This document shows positions 4,600 through 15,138 of a stretch of 64,000 bases of DNA, in pieces (position 1 is the first letter of the stretch; each line of letters begins with the position of its first letter). Location: the sequence record MW269952.1, one strand, 5' to 3'. Source of the DNA: Escherichia phage P479. Both the position numbers and the translations under genes were made by a program. The notes under the pieces were generated by a model. That model did not search any database. It saw only the letters and a program-made list of their open reading frames with translations, and was not told the origin of the DNA.

Positions 4600-4933
4600 T
4601 ATCGATTTATCTGATTTAGATAATTTCGAGAAAGATGCGGAGGGAGCTAAGGCTCCTTCTGTACCTTACTACGAAAAAAGTTTGGAGATTATCCGGCAAT
4701 CCATGGGAACTGTGCGACAGGAAATTCTGTTATCACTCCCTGATGGGTCCAGTCACATTGTGTACGTAACCGGAATTAAAATTGAACCATCTGGAAAAGT
4801 TTCAGTTGATTTCGGCACCCCTTCTGAAGACCGCAAAGCGGAGCTTGCAGTGCATGTAGAAAAGTGTGTTACAATGCAAATACAAGATGAAATTGATAAG
4901 ATTAAAATGAAAAAGAGGTGGTGGAAGTGGTAG
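4589..4933 (+). CDS. 40: gp40-like protein (head vertex assembly chaperone in T4)
   Basis: 114 aa between uvsX and 41; assignment by position and size. Confidence 0.5.
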   Translation: MMNDIDLSDLDNFEKDAEGAKAPSVPYYEKSLEIIRQSMGTVRQEILLSLPDGSSHIVYVTGIKIEPSGKVSVDFGTPSEDRKAELAVHVEKCVTMQIQDEIDKIKMKKRWWKW

Positions 4934-6357
4934 AAACTATTTTATCCCAGCTACTCTTTAACAAGGAATATTTTGTTAAAGTCTGGCCATATCTGAATAA
5001 CACATATTTTGAAAAGGGTCCTGCAAAGACCCTTTTTAATACGATTAACGAACACGTAAAAGAATATCAAGCGGTACCAACTAAGACTGCACTTGATATC
5101 GCGCTCGACAGTTCTGACCTTTCTGAAGTCGAATATGAAGGCACAAAGAAACTCTTAGGAGTCCTGGCCGATACACCAGAAGACCAGGAATGGTTGGTTA
5201 AAGAAACCGAGAAGTATGTACAGAAGTCTGCGATGTTCAATGCCACATCCAGGATTATCGAAATCCAGAGTAATGCCGAACTTCCGAAAGACAAACGTGA
5301 TAAACGAATCCCGGATATTGGTGCCATCCCTGACATCATGCGCGATGCATTGTCTATCTGTTTTGACTCTGCTCTGGGCCATGACTGGTTAAACGATTAC
5401 GAAGCTCGATTCCAGACTTATCTGAACAAATCGAAGAAGGTTCCGTTCCGTATTAACATCCTGAATAAAATCACAAAGGGTGGGGTTGAGTACGGTACAG
5501 AGAATGTTTTACTGGCCGGGACGAACGTCGGCAAATCCCTTGGACTTTGTTCGTTAGCCGCTGACTATCTTCAGACTGGTCATAATGTGCTTTATATAAG
5601 CATGGAAATGGCTGAAGAAGTATGTGCCAAACGTATTGATGCCAACTTGCTGGATGTATCTCTGGATGATATTGATGAAGGTCATGTGTCATGGGCAGAA
5701 TACAAAAGTAAGATGGAAAAATGGCGCGCAGCAGGGACTCTTGGGACTCTGAAGATAAAACAATATCCAACTGGTGGTGCTCATGCGGATACCTTCCGCG
5801 CATTATTGAATGAATACAAACTGAAGCAAGGGTTTGTGCCGGATGTGATTATTGTTGACTACCTGGCAATCTGTGCAAGCTCAAGACTGAAAACGTTTAC
5901 CGAAAACAGTTACGGTCTGATTAAGATGGTTGCAGAAGAACTTCGTGGTCTGGCGGTCGAGAAAAATGTGGTCCTGTGGACTGCAGCACAGACAACCAGG
6001 GGTGCGAACGTTGCAGCTGAGATTGATATGGCTGACATTGCAGAATCCTTTGGTATTGCTCACACGGCCGACTTTATGTTGGGTGTTGTTGAGACCGAAG
6101 AATTCGCTCAAATGGGACTACAGTTAATCAAACAACTTAAGTCTCGTTATGGCGATAAGAACTACTATAATAAATTCAAGATGGGTGTTAAGAAAGGTAA
6201 TCAGCGCTGGTACGAGGTTGATGATGATTCAGCTCCTAAACAAGGCTCTACGGTTAAAGAAGCCACTGGTGAGATGAATCGCCAGGCTGAAATGAATAGA
6301 CAAACCAGGGTCAACAGGAGCGACCTGGACGACCTTGCTGCTCAAATGAAATTCTAA
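4918..6357 (+). CDS. 41: gp41 replicative DnaB-like helicase
   Basis: 479 aa; Walker A GTNVGKS; RecA-like core; T4 gp41 is ~475 aa. Confidence 0.92.
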   Translation: MVEVVETILSQLLFNKEYFVKVWPYLNNTYFEKGPAKTLFNTINEHVKEYQAVPTKTALDIALDSSDLSEVEYEGTKKLLGVLADTPEDQEWLVKETEKYVQKSAMFNATSRIIEIQSNAELPKDKRDKRIPDIGAIPDIMRDALSICFDSALGHDWLNDYEARFQTYLNKSKKVPFRINILNKITKGGVEYGTENVLLAGTNVGKSLGLCSLAADYLQTGHNVLYISMEMAEEVCAKRIDANLLDVSLDDIDEGHVSWAEYKSKMEKWRAAGTLGTLKIKQYPTGGAHADTFRALLNEYKLKQGFVPDVIIVDYLAICASSRLKTFTENSYGLIKMVAEELRGLAVEKNVVLWTAAQTTRGANVAAEIDMADIAESFGIAHTADFMLGVVETEEFAQMGLQLIKQLKSRYGDKNYYNKFKMGVKKGNQRWYEVDDDSAPKQGSTVKEATGEMNRQAEMNRQTRVNRSDLDDLAAQMKF

Positions 6358-6376
6358 AGACCTTCGGGTCTTTTTC
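6356..6376 (+). terminator. intrinsic terminator, UUCG tetraloop (after gene 41)
   Basis: AGACC-TTCG-GGTCT then TTTTT. Confidence 0.65.
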
Positions 6377-6384
6377 ATTTTAGA

Positions 6385-6446
6385 GGTTTACATCACCATA
6401 AAAAGGGTGTACTATTATCCCATCAACTACTGATGAGGATAATAAA
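6385..6446 (+). promoter_or_regulatory. early promoter-like cassette, degenerate copy
   Basis: GTTTACA and GGTGTAC then conserved leader CCATCAACTACTGATGAGGATAATAAAATG; -10 spacing atypical. Confidence 0.4.
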
Positions 6447-6695
6447 ATGTTATTAGTTAATGTGCATTACCAGTTCAAATCTGAAGAAGCTCTCCAAAAG
6501 TATGCTGATATTTGTGAGCATAATAAAAGAACAGCTGCCATTGTTGGTCTGAAGCCTTTTAAAATTTTGGATTGCTCCTTGAACAGAGCAAGGCGCTGGT
6601 GTAGTGTTGCCTGTCATGCTTCAGTTGAAGGGAATGATTATTTTTTCATTACTTTCAATGCACAAGATTTTCATTTAATTAATGAATTAAAATAG
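6447..6695 (+). CDS. hypothetical protein (82 aa)
   Basis: ORF preceded by conserved leader CCATCAACTACTGATGAGGATAATAAAATG. Confidence 0.55.
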   Translation: MLLVNVHYQFKSEEALQKYADICEHNKRTAAIVGLKPFKILDCSLNRARRWCSVACHASVEGNDYFFITFNAQDFHLINELK

Positions 6696-6750
6696 TGTAC
6701 AAGCCCCTTGTCTTAGGACATAATGATTTCATATTGAGTTACACAATAAA
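6691..6750 (+). promoter_or_regulatory. early promoter (GTGTACA, 17 bp, CATAAT) plus leader box
   Basis: GTGTACA 6696-6702, CATAAT 6719-6724, box CATATTGAGTTACACAAT. Confidence 0.6.
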
Positions 6751-6773
6751 CCAACTGTTAAAAGGAAAACCAT

Positions 6774-7076
6774 ATGTTTAATCAAACCGACATGAATCGT
6801 TACTATTTTGGACAATTCGCTCGCCGTGATGAAAACTGTGCTGCTCTTATCGCATCAGGCATTCAAACTGGTAAATTAATAAAGCTCAAAAGCGATGTTC
6901 AACCTTCATCTGTTCGCAGCTCTCTTCGTGAATATCTGCTTGCAGGCGGTGAAGTATATGTTATCGCTGAACCTTTTGTTAATGTGTGCGATGATTACAC
7001 AATTAGTGTGACTGTTATGCACCCAACTACTGGGAAAATTCGTTGTCTGACTATGCACAACTATGAGTTGGCATAA
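6774..7076 (+). CDS. hypothetical protein (100 aa)
   Basis: ORF with upstream promoter cassette and RBS AAAGGAAAA. Confidence 0.55.
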   Translation: MFNQTDMNRYYFGQFARRDENCAALIASGIQTGKLIKLKSDVQPSSVRSSLREYLLAGGEVYVIAEPFVNVCDDYTISVTVMHPTTGKIRCLTMHNYELA

Positions 7077-7085
7077 GTGAACAAA

Positions 7086-7137
7086 GGGGCTTACAGCCCC
7101 TTTTTCTTATGTTATAATGACCCTATCAACTACTGGA
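7086..7137 (+). promoter_or_regulatory. stem-loop with embedded -35, then TATAAT and leader box
   Basis: Hairpin GGGGCTTACAGCCCC (CTTACA in loop), TATAAT 7114-7119, box CCTATCAACTACTGGAG. Confidence 0.55.
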
Positions 7138-7144
7138 GAATAAA

Positions 7145-7462
7145 ATGAAAACCATTGATTGCAAGGCAGAATACAAAGTTTATTATCATGGGTCAAGCTC
7201 TAATGCTGGAATCCAAAATATGCTTTGTCCTCCTGATGCAACTGGTGTTCTGTCAGAAGTTGGGCGTAAGAAAAATTTAGGGCGTGTGTTTTTTACTGAA
7301 GATATTGGTTTGGCGCGTATCTATGCAGGAAGAGCAGCTCGCTCATATGGAGGAGAACCCCGTCTTTATCGTGTGATTGCACCTGTTGACGTGGTTTGTT
7401 TAAATGATACTAAAGGCGCAACAGTTTATCATGCTGCCTGGGCGTTTTGTGAGGAAATCTAA
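7145..7462 (+). CDS. hypothetical protein (105 aa) with YHGSS motif
   Basis: ORF with RBS GGAGAATAAAATG; H-G-S near N-terminus plus conserved Y and C-terminal EE. Confidence 0.55.
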   Translation: MKTIDCKAEYKVYYHGSSSNAGIQNMLCPPDATGVLSEVGRKKNLGRVFFTEDIGLARIYAGRAARSYGGEPRLYRVIAPVDVVCLNDTKGATVYHAAWAFCEEI

Positions 7463-7666
7463 ATGTATAAATTAGAGAACGTAGTGTTTATTGGTTGGTT
7501 TGAAAATGGCAATATGTTTACCAAAGAAACTGCGCTGGATGTCAGTGACAAAAATATGATTGAATGGGTTACAGTGCAGTATGCAGAAGTGAATAATGCG
7601 CTGGTTAAAGCCTTTGTTAATGATAATAAAGTTTTTGAATATGATTATCGTTCTAACGAAAAATAA
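7463..7666 (+). CDS. hypothetical protein (67 aa)
   Basis: Start abuts the stop of the 7145 ORF (TAAATG). Confidence 0.5.
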   Translation: MYKLENVVFIGWFENGNMFTKETALDVSDKNMIEWVTVQYAEVNNALVKAFVNDNKVFEYDYRSNEK

Positions 7667-7668
7667 CA

Positions 7669-7721
7669 GTTTACATCAAAGGGATAATGCTGTATATTAT
7701 CCCTATCAACTACTGAGGAGA
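7669..7721 (+). promoter_or_regulatory. early promoter plus stem-loop cassette
   Basis: GTTTACA 7669-7675; stem GGGATAAT...ATTATCCC over the -10; box TATCAACTACTGAGGAG. Confidence 0.6.
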
Positions 7722-7726
7722 TTGAA

Positions 7727-8020
7727 ATGAAAAAGTTATTAATCGCAGCAATTCTTACCGTAGCATCATGTGGTACAGCTCCAGTTACTGCTGGACTTGA
7801 TAAAGACCTTTGTGAGTGGTCTATGACCGCCGACCAGACTGATGTTGAACATCAGATTTATGCTGATATCATGAACATTACTAAACGTGACCGTCCAGAT
7901 ATGGTTAAAGAAGTATCTGACCAACTGGCTTCTGGTGACGTTATGCAGTATAACTATGTTCTGTATTGCGATGCTTCATTTGACAACAGCAAGATTGTTC
8001 AATGGGTTACAGGTGAATAA
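7727..8020 (+). CDS. putative lipoprotein
   Basis: Signal peptide with lipobox VASCG. Confidence 0.55.
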   Translation: MKKLLIAAILTVASCGTAPVTAGLDKDLCEWSMTADQTDVEHQIYADIMNITKRDRPDMVKEVSDQLASGDVMQYNYVLYCDASFDNSKIVQWVTGE

Positions 8021-8021
8021 A

Positions 8022-8459
8022 ATGATTAACAGAACTTTAGTTATCAAAAAACTTCGTTGTAAAAATCAAAATGCACAAGCATACAGGATGTTTTGGAGCG
8101 ACGAAATTCAATACCTGGGTTATTTTCTTGTTGATAGTGATAATAGAATTACGTTTGCTCATAAACTTCTTAACAAAGAATTAAACCATTGGCAAGAACT
8201 TATTGCGGTCAAGTCTAAATTATTTTCGCGCAATACAATGCACCAATTGGTTTATTTTTTCGCTGACGGTATTCCCGACAAGGTTGAGTTTGACGGGTTT
8301 GAATTTAAAGACATCAACCCTGATAATGAATTGAATGGCAGTATTGTTAATATGGGTATCCCAGGTAAGTACATCAAAAACAGTCTTTTGAAACTTCTGG
8401 AAACCCCTGTTTATTCAGTTGATGACCAGATTTTTAATGCCTTCATGAAGCGAGATTAG
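8022..8459 (+). CDS. hypothetical protein (146 aa)
   Basis: In-frame ATG at 8022 just after the previous stop (track ORF starts upstream at 7887); C-terminus DDQIFNAFMKRD. Confidence 0.5.
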   Translation: MINRTLVIKKLRCKNQNAQAYRMFWSDEIQYLGYFLVDSDNRITFAHKLLNKELNHWQELIAVKSKLFSRNTMHQLVYFFADGIPDKVEFDGFEFKDINPDNELNGSIVNMGIPGKYIKNSLLKLLETPVYSVDDQIFNAFMKRD

Positions 8460-8460
8460 T

Positions 8461-8817
8461 ATGAGTTATTATAATTTTCTGAATTTTGAACTGGCGAGCA
8501 ATAATGATGGTAATGCCCATTATGAATTCCGTGAGCCTCGGTTTAATCAGGCGATTGGTTATATTATCGTCAAAGATGATGTTATCATAAAGGCTCGCTC
8601 ATTCATGGTAATGAATGGACCTTATGAAGATACTCGCGGCTATCCATTTGATAAAAAGAATGTGCGCGATTGTGCAGCATGGATAACCGGAAACCCTGAA
8701 ATTGGGGTCATGATATCTACTGAAGCGAATGACATTCTGGAAGGGGTCGTCAAAGCTCAAGAACCGCCTACTGATATTGATGACCAGATTTTTAATGCCT
8801 TCATGAAGCGAGGTTGA
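8461..8817 (+). CDS. hypothetical protein (118 aa)
   Basis: ORF; C-terminus DDQIFNAFMKRG encoded by a 36-bp copy of the preceding gene's 3' end. Confidence 0.5.
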   Translation: MSYYNFLNFELASNNDGNAHYEFREPRFNQAIGYIIVKDDVIIKARSFMVMNGPYEDTRGYPFDKKNVRDCAAWITGNPEIGVMISTEANDILEGVVKAQEPPTDIDDQIFNAFMKRG

Positions 8818-8818
8818 T

Positions 8819-9040
8819 ATGTATGTTTTGACCCAATTCTCTAAAGCAATATATAGTTACTCTTGCCAGTGGGAAGTCTTTATTGATACCCCTTCGCCTA
8901 AGTATGGTGTTTTTGGGCGAGTAACTACGCAAGCTTACGTTGCGCGACCGACTAAACGTCAGATTCGTAAACTTAAAAAGGCACATCGTCAATTGATTAA
9001 AAGAAGGGAACAATATGAGTGCAATGTGTACGGGCTCTAA
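8819..9040 (+). CDS. hypothetical basic protein (73 aa)
   Basis: ORF, Lys/Arg-rich C-terminal half. Confidence 0.45.
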   Translation: MYVLTQFSKAIYSYSCQWEVFIDTPSPKYGVFGRVTTQAYVARPTKRQIRKLKKAHRQLIKRREQYECNVYGL

Positions 9041-9206
9041 GATTTCTGTCTTCCAGATTTTTGAAGAATATGAAATCGTGTCGCAAGACCAAGAAGCAAT
9101 CCATGTTATCGCTGATGATGGGGTTACCTGGATTATTCCGTTGTATCATGAAGACACTTATGAAGTGACTGATGCAAATGGTGATAAAGCTATCTTCGTT
9201 GTATAA
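9015..9206 (+). CDS. hypothetical acidic protein (63 aa)
   Basis: ORF overlapping the previous one. Confidence 0.4.
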   Translation: MSAMCTGSKISVFQIFEEYEIVSQDQEAIHVIADDGVTWIIPLYHEDTYEVTDANGDKAIFVV

Positions 9207-9209
9207 ATA
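9202..9209 (+). promoter_or_regulatory. late-promoter motif TATAAATA upstream of the 9226 ORF
   Basis: Exact TATAAATA 17 nt before ATG 9226. Confidence 0.4.
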
Positions 9210-9225
9210 GCGGAAAGGGGGTGTT

Positions 9226-9393
9226 ATGAAAACATTCAAAGATTTTATCAACGAAAATATGGTTGCCGGTGATGCAGGTGGAAACCCAACTAATATCGCA
9301 ACAGGTACCACTTCCGGGGCAGTTGTCAATAAAGGCCCTGAACAAATCCCATCAAAAAAGCGTAAGAACAAAGACGATAAACCTACAGTATAA
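9226..9393 (+). CDS. hypothetical protein (55 aa), possibly late-expressed
   Basis: RBS AAAGGGGGTG; exact TATAAATA 17 nt upstream; not in ORF track. Confidence 0.4.
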   Translation: MKTFKDFINENMVAGDAGGNPTNIATGTTSGAVVNKGPEQIPSKKRKNKDDKPTV

Positions 9394-9410
9394 TGGTCCT
9401 TCGGGGCCAT
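9393..9410 (+). other. imperfect stem-loop before gene 61
   Basis: ATGGTCC-TTCG-GGGCCAT, one mismatch, no T tract. Confidence 0.35.
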
Positions 9411-9425
9411 TGAAATGAGGAAACT

Positions 9426-10454
9426 ATGTCATATATTGATAAAGAATTTGCAGTCAGAGCTTTATCGTATCAACCACGTTATAGAGAAGTCACCGGGAGC
9501 ACATTTAAAGCAAACTGTCGTTGCAAGGTTTGTGGGGACTCCCAGAAAGATTCACACAAGGCTCGATTCTGGGCGTATACTAATCCGGCTGATGGCGCGG
9601 TTTACGTGAAATGTTTTAACTGTGACTACTCCACGCATATAAGCAAATACATAAAAGAGTTTGAGCCTGATTTACACCGGGAATATATGGTTGAGAAGTA
9701 CAAGGAGAACGCCTTCGGGCGACAACGTAATGAAGTTGCAGAAGCTCCGAAAGAACCAGAAAAAACTCCGGTTATCGAACAGCTTGCTTTTTGTGAAAGA
9801 CTCGATACTTTACCAGAAGCACATCCGATAGTTAAGTATGTAAAAAGTCGATGTATTCCAAGCAATGTTTGGAACCGACTATGGTTTACAAACCAATGGC
9901 CTGCATTAGTTAACTCCGTTAATCCTGGGACGTATAAGAATGAAACGAATGAACCACGCTTGGTTATTCCTATCTTCAACGGCAAAAAAGAAATCGAATC
10001 TTTCCAAGGACGAGCTCTTCGCAAAGATGCACCACAAAAATATATCACAATCAAAGCTCACCCAGAAGCTTCCAAAGTCTATGGCGTAGACAAGATTGAT
10101 GAGCGTAAACGCGTATGGGTAATGGAAGGTCCGATTGATAGTTTGTTTATCCCTAACAGCATTGCGATAACTGGTGGAACATTGTCATTGGAAGCCGTTC
10201 CTTATCCAGAAACCAGAGTATGGGTAATGGACAACGAACCAAGACATCCGGATACGATTAAACGTATGAAGAAGCTCGTTGAAGCTGGCGAAGCTGTTAT
10301 GTTCTGGGACAATGCACCATGGCATACGAAAGACATAAATGAGATGGTTAAATCAGAAGGAGCAACCCCTGAACAAATCGAATCATATATGGCCGATAAC
10401 GTTGCTCAAGGATTGATGGCGAGAATGCGACTTTCGAAGTACGCAAAAGTTTAG
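9426..10454 (+). CDS. 61: gp61 DNA primase
   Basis: 342 aa (same as T4 gp61); zinc ribbon CRCKVCGD...CFNCDYS; TOPRIM-like EGPIDSL. Confidence 0.9.
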   Translation: MSYIDKEFAVRALSYQPRYREVTGSTFKANCRCKVCGDSQKDSHKARFWAYTNPADGAVYVKCFNCDYSTHISKYIKEFEPDLHREYMVEKYKENAFGRQRNEVAEAPKEPEKTPVIEQLAFCERLDTLPEAHPIVKYVKSRCIPSNVWNRLWFTNQWPALVNSVNPGTYKNETNEPRLVIPIFNGKKEIESFQGRALRKDAPQKYITIKAHPEASKVYGVDKIDERKRVWVMEGPIDSLFIPNSIAITGGTLSLEAVPYPETRVWVMDNEPRHPDTIKRMKKLVEAGEAVMFWDNAPWHTKDINEMVKSEGATPEQIESYMADNVAQGLMARMRLSKYAKV

Positions 10455-10651
10455 GAAGGGATTCCGGTAAAGTAACCGATGATGGAATGGATATGTTCCA
10501 TTGTGACCTGGAGTAAGTGTACCCCTTGTGTTGCAGCGATAGGCACAACCAGTAAGTTCCACAGGAAAACATCAAGAGCTAAAAAGCCCATGATGAGCTT
10601 CTTGTCTTTCTTACTGGTTAATTTCCAAATCTGATAGAATAATGTTCCCAT
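10451..10651 (-). CDS. small membrane protein, paralog A (66 aa)
   Basis: Minus-strand ORF; TM helix LWNLLVVPIAATQGVHLLQV; paralog of 10660..10857. Confidence 0.5.
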   Translation of the reverse strand: MGTLFYQIWKLTSKKDKKLIMGFLALDVFLWNLLVVPIAATQGVHLLQVTMEHIHSIIGYFTGIPS

Positions 10652-10659
10652 AGTTCCAC

Positions 10660-10857
10660 CTATATAAGGCCGATTAATGCCAGTGAAACATCTACAACTG
10701 ATTCGAGCGCGACGACTGGTAATATAACACCATGTGCCATTGCAACTGGAGCAACAATGAAGTTCCAGAGTAGAACTAAACAGAGTACCGAAAGGACCAG
10801 AATCGTTCGCTTACGACTGCCTTTGATGGCTTGAATTAGACTAGATAGTTTTAGCAT
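10660..10857 (-). CDS. small membrane protein, paralog B (65 aa)
   Basis: Minus-strand ORF; strong RBS GAAAGGGGGA; late-promoter-like CATAAATA upstream; TM helix LWNFIVAPVAMAHGVILPVV. Confidence 0.55.
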   Translation of the reverse strand: MLKLSSLIQAIKGSRKRTILVLSVLCLVLLWNFIVAPVAMAHGVILPVVALESVVDVSLALIGLI

Positions 10858-10941: not shown

Positions 10942-11457
10942 ATGGCTCATTTTAATGAATGTTCTCAACTGATTGCTGGTGTTGATAAAGCTCAGGGCGC
11001 TTATGATAATGCAATTTTTGAAGGCACTGACCCACTGCAAGTTATGCTTGATATGCAGAAATCATTGCAGGTTCGTCTGGCTAATGACCGTGATTATTGC
11101 TACCATCCAGATAAATTAGCGACTGCTGGTGATGTTGTTGCTTGGATGCGCGAACAAAAAGACTGCATTGACGATGAATTCCGTGAACTGATTACTTCAT
11201 TGGGTGAAATGTCTAAAGGTGAAAAAGATGCATCTGCTGTCTGGAAAAAATGGAAGGCTCGTTATACTGAAGCGCAAGCTAAACCAATTTCAGAAATGTC
11301 CCCAGAAGACCAGCTTGAAATTAAATTTGAATTAATTGATATCATGCATTTCGTATTCAATATGGCTATTGGTTTGAATATGTCTGCGGAAGAATTGTTC
11401 AAACTGTATTATCTGAAAAATGCCGAGAACTTTGCGAGACAGGACCGTGGCTATTAA
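10942..11457 (+). CDS. 56: gp56-like nucleoside triphosphate pyrophosphatase (dCTPase/dUTPase family)
   Basis: 172 aa from ATG at 10942 (track starts at upstream TTG); all-alpha MazG-like pattern; T4 gp56 is ~171 aa; position between 61 and soc. Confidence 0.7.
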   Translation: MAHFNECSQLIAGVDKAQGAYDNAIFEGTDPLQVMLDMQKSLQVRLANDRDYCYHPDKLATAGDVVAWMREQKDCIDDEFRELITSLGEMSKGEKDASAVWKKWKARYTEAQAKPISEMSPEDQLEIKFELIDIMHFVFNMAIGLNMSAEELFKLYYLKNAENFARQDRGY

Positions 11458-12103
11458 GGCAAGATTTCATAGGACGTATATAATTAAAGTTAAAACGCCG
11501 AAAGGCGTTTTTTGGTATGGTGGTAAACACGAAACCAATGTACTAGACCCATATAAAGACCGATATTCAGGCTCCGGAAAAATACTCTGGAACATATATA
11601 AAAAGTATGGAGTCAAATATCAAATTCGCTGGTTTGTTGGTCACCAGAATAGGGAAATGGCGTTTGAACATGAAAGATATCTAATATCATTATTAAATTC
11701 TAAACATGGTTCAAACTGTATTAATATTTTACCTGGTGGGCAGGGCGGAGGCGGATATGAATGGACTGATGAAATGAAGTTGGCCCAAACACTACGTTTA
11801 AATAAGCCCGAAACTAAAGCTAAAATGAAAAGCGCCCAATGTGTTGCTCAAAATCGCCCTGAACGCAAATCCAGACAATCAAAAGCAATGAGCGAGTTTT
11901 ATGCAAATGGTGGAAATAAAATCGTATCAGAAGCCACATCTAAAGCGCAAAGAACTGCAGCTCATTGGCATGAACCATTGAAAAGTGAAATCTATCAGAT
12001 TTGGCTTTCATTAGGTAAACCCGGTGGAGCTTCTGCTGTGGTTAAAGCACTTAAGGGAAAATACGAAACAACCCCCAGCGCACTTAAACTTTTAATATAT
12101 TAA
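11420..12103 (+). CDS. GIY-YIG homing endonuclease (Seg-like)
   Basis: YIIKVKTPKGVFWYGG ... YSGSGK resembles Seg proteins; start overlaps last 38 nt of gene 56. Confidence 0.65.
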   Translation: MPRTLRDRTVAIKARFHRTYIIKVKTPKGVFWYGGKHETNVLDPYKDRYSGSGKILWNIYKKYGVKYQIRWFVGHQNREMAFEHERYLISLLNSKHGSNCINILPGGQGGGGYEWTDEMKLAQTLRLNKPETKAKMKSAQCVAQNRPERKSRQSKAMSEFYANGGNKIVSEATSKAQRTAAHWHEPLKSEIYQIWLSLGKPGGASAVVKALKGKYETTPSALKLLIY

Positions 12104-15094: not shown

Positions 15095-15138
15095 GACACG
15101 TTAAGATGTTCCTATCAACTACTGATGAGGATAATAAA
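15072..15138 (+). promoter_or_regulatory. early promoter (inside 3' end of upstream gene) plus leader box
   Basis: TTGACTGTGTACA then GTTAAGATGTTCC; box CCTATCAACTACTGATGAGGATAATAAAATG. Confidence 0.5.

Follow-up and report, generated by a model that had tools for sequence, protein, structure and literature searches.

The gene 41–61 interval of Escherichia phage P479, a probable Gaprivervirus version of the T4 anti-TA island

Between the genes for the gp41 replicative helicase and the gp61 primase, Escherichia phage P479 (sequence record MW269952.1) carries a block of ten small open reading frames (ORFs), here called O1–O10, all on the + strand and spanning positions 6447–9393 of the 64,000-nucleotide stretch that was analysed (the window). 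The block is very probably the Gaprivervirus version of the hyperplastic 41–61 interval that forms the anti-toxin–antitoxin (anti-TA) island of T4, transcribed early and exchanged as cassettes. Counter-defence as a kind of function is already known for the T4 interval, and in this respect the block is largely ordinary. The exception is O3, an uncharacterised mini ADP-ribosyltransferase-like protein. All features discussed below are collected in Table 1.

In the T4 record, the genes follow each other in the direction of transcription as 41, dmd (61.5), 61.4, sp, 61.2, 61.1 and 61, with the five intervening ORFs occupying 1.65 kb. A first-pass annotation of the P479 sequence had taken genes 41 and 61 to be adjacent in T4, which the T4 record contradicts: dmd, tifA (61.4), sp, adfA (61.2) and 61.1 are all located between them. 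Because the T4 interval itself carries five ORFs, the block is, as judged from sequence comparison, the syntenic counterpart of the T4 61.1–dmd interval, expanded from five to ten ORFs, and not an insertion into an adjacent pair. The T4 interval has been termed the 'anti-TA island' (Srikant et al. 2022, PMC9391042). T4 Dmd inhibits RnlA and is an antitoxin mimic (PMC9391042), tifA (61.4) inhibits ToxN (PMC10853763; island concept in PMC9391042) and adfA (61.2) counters DarT (PMC11257639).

The ten ORFs had been described as unknown. The profile hidden Markov model search proposed in the first-pass annotation identifies O4 as Dmd (PF17587), O5 as Spackle (PF25676) and O8 as a member of the TifA family (DUF7279, PF23945), all above the curated cut-offs, and leaves O2 and O9 without a functional lead. 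Searches of NCBIfam and PADLOC with the ten ORFs produced no meaningful match. O4 is 56–57% identical to the Dmd proteins of T4 and RB32 (T4 Dmd 56%, E = 3e-21) and is an early gene in the first conserved operon after gene 41, as in T4, RB3 and RB32, with O3 intervening here after the promoter. O5 aligns with T4 Sp without gaps over 97 amino acids at 66% identity, keeps the hydrophobic N-terminus or signal sequence and retains Cys29 and Cys81. T4 Spackle is cleaved to a mature form of 75 amino acids that is soluble in the periplasm and has a Cys29/Cys81 pair in a helical bundle; superinfection exclusion is due to this protein, an inhibitor of the gp5 tail lysozyme (PMC7677548). Of the two lipoprotein-like ORFs that had been reported for the block, only O5 combines a hydrophobic N-terminus with a lipobox-like sequence (VASC), which corresponds to LASC in T4 Sp, the homolog that is cleaved and soluble in the periplasm. 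The second candidate appears only when O6 is read from a GTG at 7887. O10 is 83% identical to T4 gp61.1 over 42 amino acids.

O8 scores almost as well on PF23945 as T4 TifA itself (72.7 bits) and shares 39% identity with it (E = 8e-14). It carries a Pro-Thr (PT) cap followed by a basic C-terminal helix, ARPTKRQIRKLKKAHRQLIKRRE; a conserved PT cap and a basic C-terminal RNA-binding helix have been described for TifA (PMC10853763). The gene is part of the sp operon, after O7, and is neither co-operonic with dmd nor directly downstream of it. In the comparison with its ortholog in VR7 and/or SP18, 21 synonymous and two non-synonymous codon changes are observed. VR7 holds a syntenic TifA (ORF041c) in addition to an O8-type copy, while EAWsc9 lacks O8.

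The functions considered here are carried over from tested homologs of T4 and RB69. By homology, Dmd (O4) would bind and inhibit RnlA-type RNase toxins, O8 would bind a ToxN-type RNase and RNA, and Spackle (O5) would be exported to the periplasm and inhibit the gp5 tail lysozyme of superinfecting T-even phages. The earlier guess of anti-defence and superinfection-exclusion functions is in agreement with the homology of Dmd, the TifA family, Spackle and the AdfA-related ORFs; its framing as an insertion is not.

Directly after dmd, phage 212, EAWsc9 and VR7 have an ORF of 110–113 amino acids (1620–1961 of locus L004, 2094–2435 of L006 and 2128–2460 of L005) that is absent from the window. Its N-terminal half is 31% identical to the window Dmd (E = 5e-5) and reaches 19.5 bits on PF17587, which is under the cut-off. 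The ORF resembles a Dmd paralog extended at its C-terminus.

The ten ORFs are real and cover about 89% of the 3,068-nucleotide interval between the stop of gene 41 (6357) and the start of gene 61 (9426). Two of the four putative transcription units described below are densely packed: the O3 stop codon abuts the dmd ATG (TAAATG), and further downstream the later genes are one base apart or overlap. Phage homologs were found for all ten. The interval DNA is 98.8% identical to that of Escherichia phage CJ20 and 97% identical to that of Shigella phage SP18, both of the genus Gaprivervirus. Relative to the orthologs from VR7 and/or SP18, changes in O2–O10 are mostly at third codon positions or synonymous, and these nine are therefore real genes; the pattern of codon changes points to purifying selection on the ORFs. 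O1 is identical to its SP18 copy and the substitution test is silent on it; its support comes from a homolog in RB3-type phages. The CJ20 record (locus L002, 5530–6102 and 6640–7053) contains a long, GTG-started O6 that overlaps sp and an antisense ORF of 137 amino acids across O9 and O10, and omits dmd, O8, O9 and O10. The two unusual CJ20 ORFs are probably annotation artefacts. In the window they correspond to a GTG-started O6 at 7887–8459, which overlaps sp and has its conserved start at the ATG at 8022, and to a minus-strand ORF at 8997–9410 that overlaps conserved + strand genes. Both were rejected as spurious because the overlapped + strand genes change mainly at third positions of the + frames.

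Four sigma-70 or early-promoter-like sites (P1–P4) are present in the + strand intergenic gaps, matching the four promoter cassettes noted earlier. Three of the four are followed by the leader ATCAACTACTG, which occurs in eight exact + strand copies in the window, compared with about one expected. Besides the three in the block, five + strand copies, at 15114, 19230, 30434, 50647 and 60701, probably mark more early-promoter cassettes of the same type. Promoter-early stem-loop (PeSL) cassettes have been described in the hyperplastic regions of T4-like phages (Arbiol et al. 2010, PMC2839356; Comeau et al. 2014, PMC4122927). A stem-loop that overlaps or abuts the early promoter is found at P3 and, 14 nucleotides upstream, at P1, and not at P2 and P4. 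Host RNA polymerase would transcribe the block immediately after infection from the four early promoters in four putative units: P1–O1, P2–O2, P3–O3–dmd and P4–sp–O6–O7–O8–O9–O10. Read-through from P4 into gene 61 is possible because no T-run follows the hairpin after O10.

Gene gain and loss among the relatives falls exactly at the promoter cassettes and at a tail-coding repeat. Similarity to related phages begins at P2, P3 or P4 (window positions 6695/6714, 7083–7124 and 7658/7668, respectively). In EAWsc9, gene 41 is joined directly to a P3-type hairpin–promoter cassette and O1 and O2 are absent, and in VR7 a P2-type cassette directly follows the gene 41 hairpin and O1 is absent. Homologous recombination between repeated PeSL-type promoter and hairpin cassettes would add or remove whole cassettes, which is the mechanism known from PeSLs in T4-like phages (PMC2839356, PMC4122927), with the tail-coding repeat as a second, in-frame recombination junction.

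This repeat is 45 nucleotides long, and its two copies are 93% identical. It encodes the C-termini of O6 and O7, DDQIFNAFMKR(D/G), which are the C-terminal peptide of AdfA (85% over 13 amino acids for the O6 tail). In 19 copies of the tail, from nine phages and the window, the core DDQIFNAFM shows synonymous changes only, and each copy runs into a stop codon, a single T and the ATG of the next gene. The AdfA-type tail occurs at 902 places in 705 phage records. RB32 has an O7-like gene inserted at the precise junction of the adfA tail and 61.1, and phiD1 has a tandem duplication of an O7-like gene.

For the remainder of O7 a relationship to AdfA is also likely. O7 is 47% identical to RB32ORF033c, which reaches 32.2 bits on the AdfA family PF23813 at profile positions 113–211 (T4 AdfA itself, 450 bits). 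When the tail is removed, hhalign scores the O7 family against AdfA at 21.7, compared with 13.0 ± 2.5 for column-shuffled alignments, and two of 500 shuffles reach 21.7. We regard O7 as probably a one-domain protein related to the C-terminal half of AdfA. At the level of sequence, the O6 body is not demonstrably related to AdfA; the tail-less score of O6 against O7 is reached by three of 100 shuffles. Full-length hhalign matches of O6 and O7 to AdfA (probability 96–97%) were rejected as body homology, as the score is carried by the tail, and an origin of AdfA by internal duplication of an O6/O7-like module is not claimed (hhalign self-comparison, E = 0.13). All of these families are narrow in large-database searches: three clusters among 1.84 billion representative proteins for O6 (exhaustive search), eight for O7 and 16 for T4 AdfA. 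O6 is a fast-evolving gene: relative to VR7, 42 of its codon changes are non-synonymous and 21 are synonymous. The AlphaFold2 (AF2) model of O7, built from eight sequences that are 84–97% identical to O7, has a predicted local distance difference test score (pLDDT) of 49.9 and is too poor for a fold comparison. O7, and possibly O6, may be AdfA-type factors in which a variable body gives target specificity and the conserved helix DDQIFNAFMxR at the C-terminus serves a shared role.

O3 is translationally coupled to dmd. Its AF2 model is confident (pLDDT 87), and Foldseek searches with this model agree on an ADP-ribosyltransferase (ART) core fold in both the PDB and BFVD. O3 is predicted to adopt a minimal ART fold like those of Tpt1, Arr and AcrF11. 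The family is strongly conserved (52–99% identity) in 609 T4-like phage records, from phages of Escherichia, Klebsiella, Acinetobacter, Aeromonas, Vibrio and others. In 34 sequences, His15, Gly16, Phe49 and Tyr60 are invariant and Glu103 is at least 90% conserved. These residues may fit an H-Y-E type NAD+ site, the assignment being made by pattern (the Phe49–Tyr60 spacing and the last strand) and not by structural superposition. O3 does not match Arr-ms (PF12120), and in a Pfam search with the 34 family members only two gave a match, at E = 0.084 or weaker; the O3 profile finds no match among PDB sequences at E values up to 10. O3 lies just upstream of dmd in the Escherichia T-even relatives, and its link to Dmd is lineage-specific because it is found elsewhere in unrelated genomic contexts. 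A literature search found no experimental study of an O3 homolog. The protein may be a NAD+-using ART that is made together with Dmd. A bolder proposal, which we put forward tentatively and consider rather unlikely, is that O3 is an active NAD+-dependent ART, co-produced with Dmd, whose modification of a conserved host defence protein or nucleic-acid end aids counter-defence or host takeover, comparable to the modification of Cas8f by AcrF11, and that DDQIFNAFMxR on AdfA, O6 and O7 is a common docking peptide for swappable anti-toxin bodies. Neither the ART nor the docking-peptide reading is described in the literature searched.

The remaining ORFs are less informative. O1 is 33% identical to T4 GoF (141 amino acids) over the N-terminal 63 amino acids only (E = 1e-7), and a 57% identical homolog lies between tifA and sp in RB3-type Tequatroviruses; it is absent from VR7 and EAWsc9. 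O1 may be a GoF-like modulator of RNA metabolism. Its C-terminal part is Cys-rich, DCSLNRARRWCSVACH (6567–6620, residues 41–58), with a sub-threshold match to zf-CGNR (18.3 bits, cut-off 24). Where the two proteins align, these cysteines are missing from T4 GoF. O2 is limited to 21 phage records, with identities of 95% or more, and differs from its VR7 ortholog by 13 synonymous and five non-synonymous codon changes. O9 has a pI of 4.05 and a net charge of -10, is found in 288 phage records and its start overlaps O8 by 26 nucleotides. O2, O9 and O10 may be further small effectors.

Several observations weigh against an early-transcribed counter-defence island. All of the activities are deduced from homologs. 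The promoter sites are consensus matches in AT-rich DNA, where 23 such matches were counted compared with 10.2 ± 3.3 in shuffled sequences, and P2 and P4 have no significant hairpin (z-scores of 0.1 and -1.5). O8 shares only the 39% identity with T4 TifA given above, and distant TifA homologs neutralised none of the ToxN or TenpN toxins tested (PMC10853763). O7 matches the AdfA family PF23813 with its last 14 residues only, at 20.6 bits and below the cut-off of 27; O6 does not match this family, and its tail-less hhalign score against AdfA is reached by six of 100 shuffles. The T4 AdfA deletion has no phenotype against DarTG1 (PMC11257639). Finally, O3 has no Pfam, NCBIfam or PADLOC match, and it resides in other contexts in Slopekvirus, Acinetobacter and Aeromonas phages.

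Among the alternatives, the one that fares best, although still improbable, regards O1, O2, O6, O7, O9 and O10 as selfish or neutral passengers of recombinogenic cassettes that bring the phage no benefit, so that only Dmd and Spackle matter. Presence and absence of genes indeed varies among near-identical phages and the ratio of non-synonymous to synonymous changes in O6 is high (42 to 21), yet patchy spread and fast evolution are equally expected of arms-race effectors, and synonymous changes outnumber non-synonymous ones in O2, O8, O9 and O10. O2 and O6 are extremely narrow families, whereas O9 has been retained by 288 phages and O3 by 609. The lack of a phenotype for the T4 adfA deletion fits passengers as well, but the tail core varies only synonymously in its 19 copies. 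A lineage-specific 3-kb insertion of novel ORFs that splits a 41–61 pair adjacent in T4-type genomes is very improbable. The interval is about 1.4 kb longer than that of T4 and O1, O2, O3, O6 and O9 have no counterpart in the T4 interval, but the T4 record, with five ORFs between 41 and 61, refutes the premise; four of these five (dmd, sp, tifA-family and 61.1) have homologs here, three in the same relative order, and the interval is filled in RB3, RB32, phiD1 and VR7 as well. Hardly any weight can be given to the ORFs as accessory factors of the helicase–primase replisome, placed for co-expression with 41 and 61: their position and the possible read-through from P4 into gene 61 past the O10 hairpin, which has no T-run, would suit such a role, but the characterised homologs target host RNase toxins and a periplasmic tail lysozyme and not replication, gene content differs among phages with nearly identical gp41 and gp61, and the O3 genes of Slopekvirus and Aeromonas phages are remote from 41 and 61.

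Table 1. Features of the 41–61 interval of phage P479 and its flanking genes, in window coordinates.
Feature	Coordinates	Strand	Description and basis
gp41	4918–6357	+	Replicative helicase, left flank; ORF, gp41 label at the matching position in SP18 and CJ20
Hairpin after gene 41	6356–6373	+	UUCG tetraloop and T-run, terminator-like; dG -8.1 kcal/mol, z -4.0
P1	6387–6415	+	Early-promoter-like, TTTACA-17-TACTAT; leader ATCAACTACTG at 6422–6432
O1	6447–6695	+	82 amino acids; candidate paralog of the N-terminal part of GoF, the only gene of its promoter cassette; phrog_2980, E = 3.6e-20
P2	6696–6724	+	Early-promoter-like, TGTACA-17-CATAAT; leader differs from ATCAACTACTG
O2	6774–7076	+	100 amino acids; ORFan limited to Gapriverviruses; phrog_17014
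PeSL-type composite	7079–7118	+	Strong hairpin at 7079–7106 after O2, loop and stem hold the P3 -35; dG -15 kcal/mol, z -4.3
P3	7090–7118	+	Early-promoter-like, CTTACA-17-TATAAT; leader ATCAACTACTG at 7125–7135
O3	7145–7462	+	105 amino acids; predicted minimal ADP-ribosyltransferase fold; AF2 model, Foldseek
O4	7463–7666	+	Dmd; PF17587, 74.1 bits (cut-off 27)
P4	7670–7698	+	Early-promoter-like, TTTACA-17-TATATT; leader ATCAACTACTG at 7705–7715
O5	7727–8020	+	Spackle; PF25676, 147.8 bits
O6	8022–8459	+	145 amino acids; fast-evolving ORFan body with AdfA-type C-terminal tail; phrog_8539
Tail-coding direct repeat, copy 1	8419–8463	+	45-nucleotide repeat; O6 3' end, stop and O7 start
O7	8461–8817	+	118 amino acids; probable relative of the AdfA C-terminal half, same tail; phrog_4122
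Tail-coding direct repeat, copy 2	8777–8821	+	45-nucleotide repeat; O7 3' end, stop and O8 start
O8	8819–9040	+	73 amino acids; TifA family (DUF7279) in a non-T4 position; PF23945, 72.2 bits (cut-off 24.5)
O9	9015–9206	+	63 amino acids; very acidic; phrog_3249
O10	9226–9393	+	gp61.1 homolog; phrog_1823
Hairpin between O10 and gene 61	9391–9412	+	UUCG tetraloop; dG -11.8 kcal/mol, z -3.2
gp61	9426–10454	+	Primase, right flank; ORF, SP18 and CJ20 annotation

Two further observations concern the neighbourhood downstream of gene 61. An ORF of 227 amino acids at 11420–12103 (+) overlaps the 3' end of gene 56, in the position of T4 segF, and encodes a homolog of the homing endonuclease SegF (63% identity to T4 SegF, E = 3e-106; phrog_314). 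The annotations of SP18 and CJ20 are without a segF-type gene after 56, which suggests that segF is polymorphic, being present in some of these phages and absent from others. Two paralogous ORFs in tandem, each of about 65 amino acids, lie antisense between genes 61 and 56 at 10451–10651 (-) and 10660–10857 (-); both are membrane-protein-like and belong to phrog_2024. In the relatives only one copy is annotated, under the name 'holin family protein' or dam.1.

The block offers a richer example of a T-even counter-defence island, in which the rebuilding by cassettes is visible at base-pair resolution. Candidates for new anti-defence activities are O3, O6 and O7 in the adfA position, the displaced TifA-family protein O8 and the acidic O9, with O3 and the AdfA-tail cassettes as the ones that merit experimental work. 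Gaprivervirus phages are used in therapy cocktails, and the cassettes that they carry could influence which defended strains therapy phages infect.

Compared with the NAD+ lobe of Tpt1/KptA, the rifampin ART Arr and the anti-CRISPR AcrF11, O3 is the shortest at 105 amino acids; it has no sequence-level membership in these families and lacks the RNA-binding lobe of Tpt1. Compared with AdfA (T4 gp61.2, PF23813; 208 amino acids), O7 and O6 are shorter at 118 and 145 amino acids, both remain below the Pfam cut-off and a full-length AdfA is missing from the window. However, both share with AdfA the C-terminus DDQIFNAFM(K/N)R(G/D), with hardly any difference in the coding DNA, and both occupy the adfA slot downstream of sp; a weak alignment also exists between the O7 family and the C-terminal half of AdfA.

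A true overlap of hairpin and -35 element, as in PeSL cassettes, exists only at P3, while P1 just has the gene 41 hairpin upstream, and the window uses a second junction composed of the AdfA-type tail, the stop codon and the next start codon. In common with PeSLs, short composites of hairpin and early promoter are repeated through the region, exactly at the indel and homology breakpoints of the relatives. With respect to the T4 interval, the window has ten ORFs in place of five, with two additional single-gene promoter cassettes (O1 and O2) and O9. O3 is placed between the promoter and dmd, and tifA does not directly follow dmd, a TifA-family gene being located four genes further downstream. 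In place of a full-length adfA, O6 and O7 carry the tail or half only. The flanking genes and their orientation are nevertheless the same, early promoters precede the dmd unit and the sp unit in both, homologs of Dmd, Spackle, TifA and gp61.1 are present together with the AdfA tail, and both follow the order 41, dmd, (tifA), sp, (adfA), 61.1 and 61.

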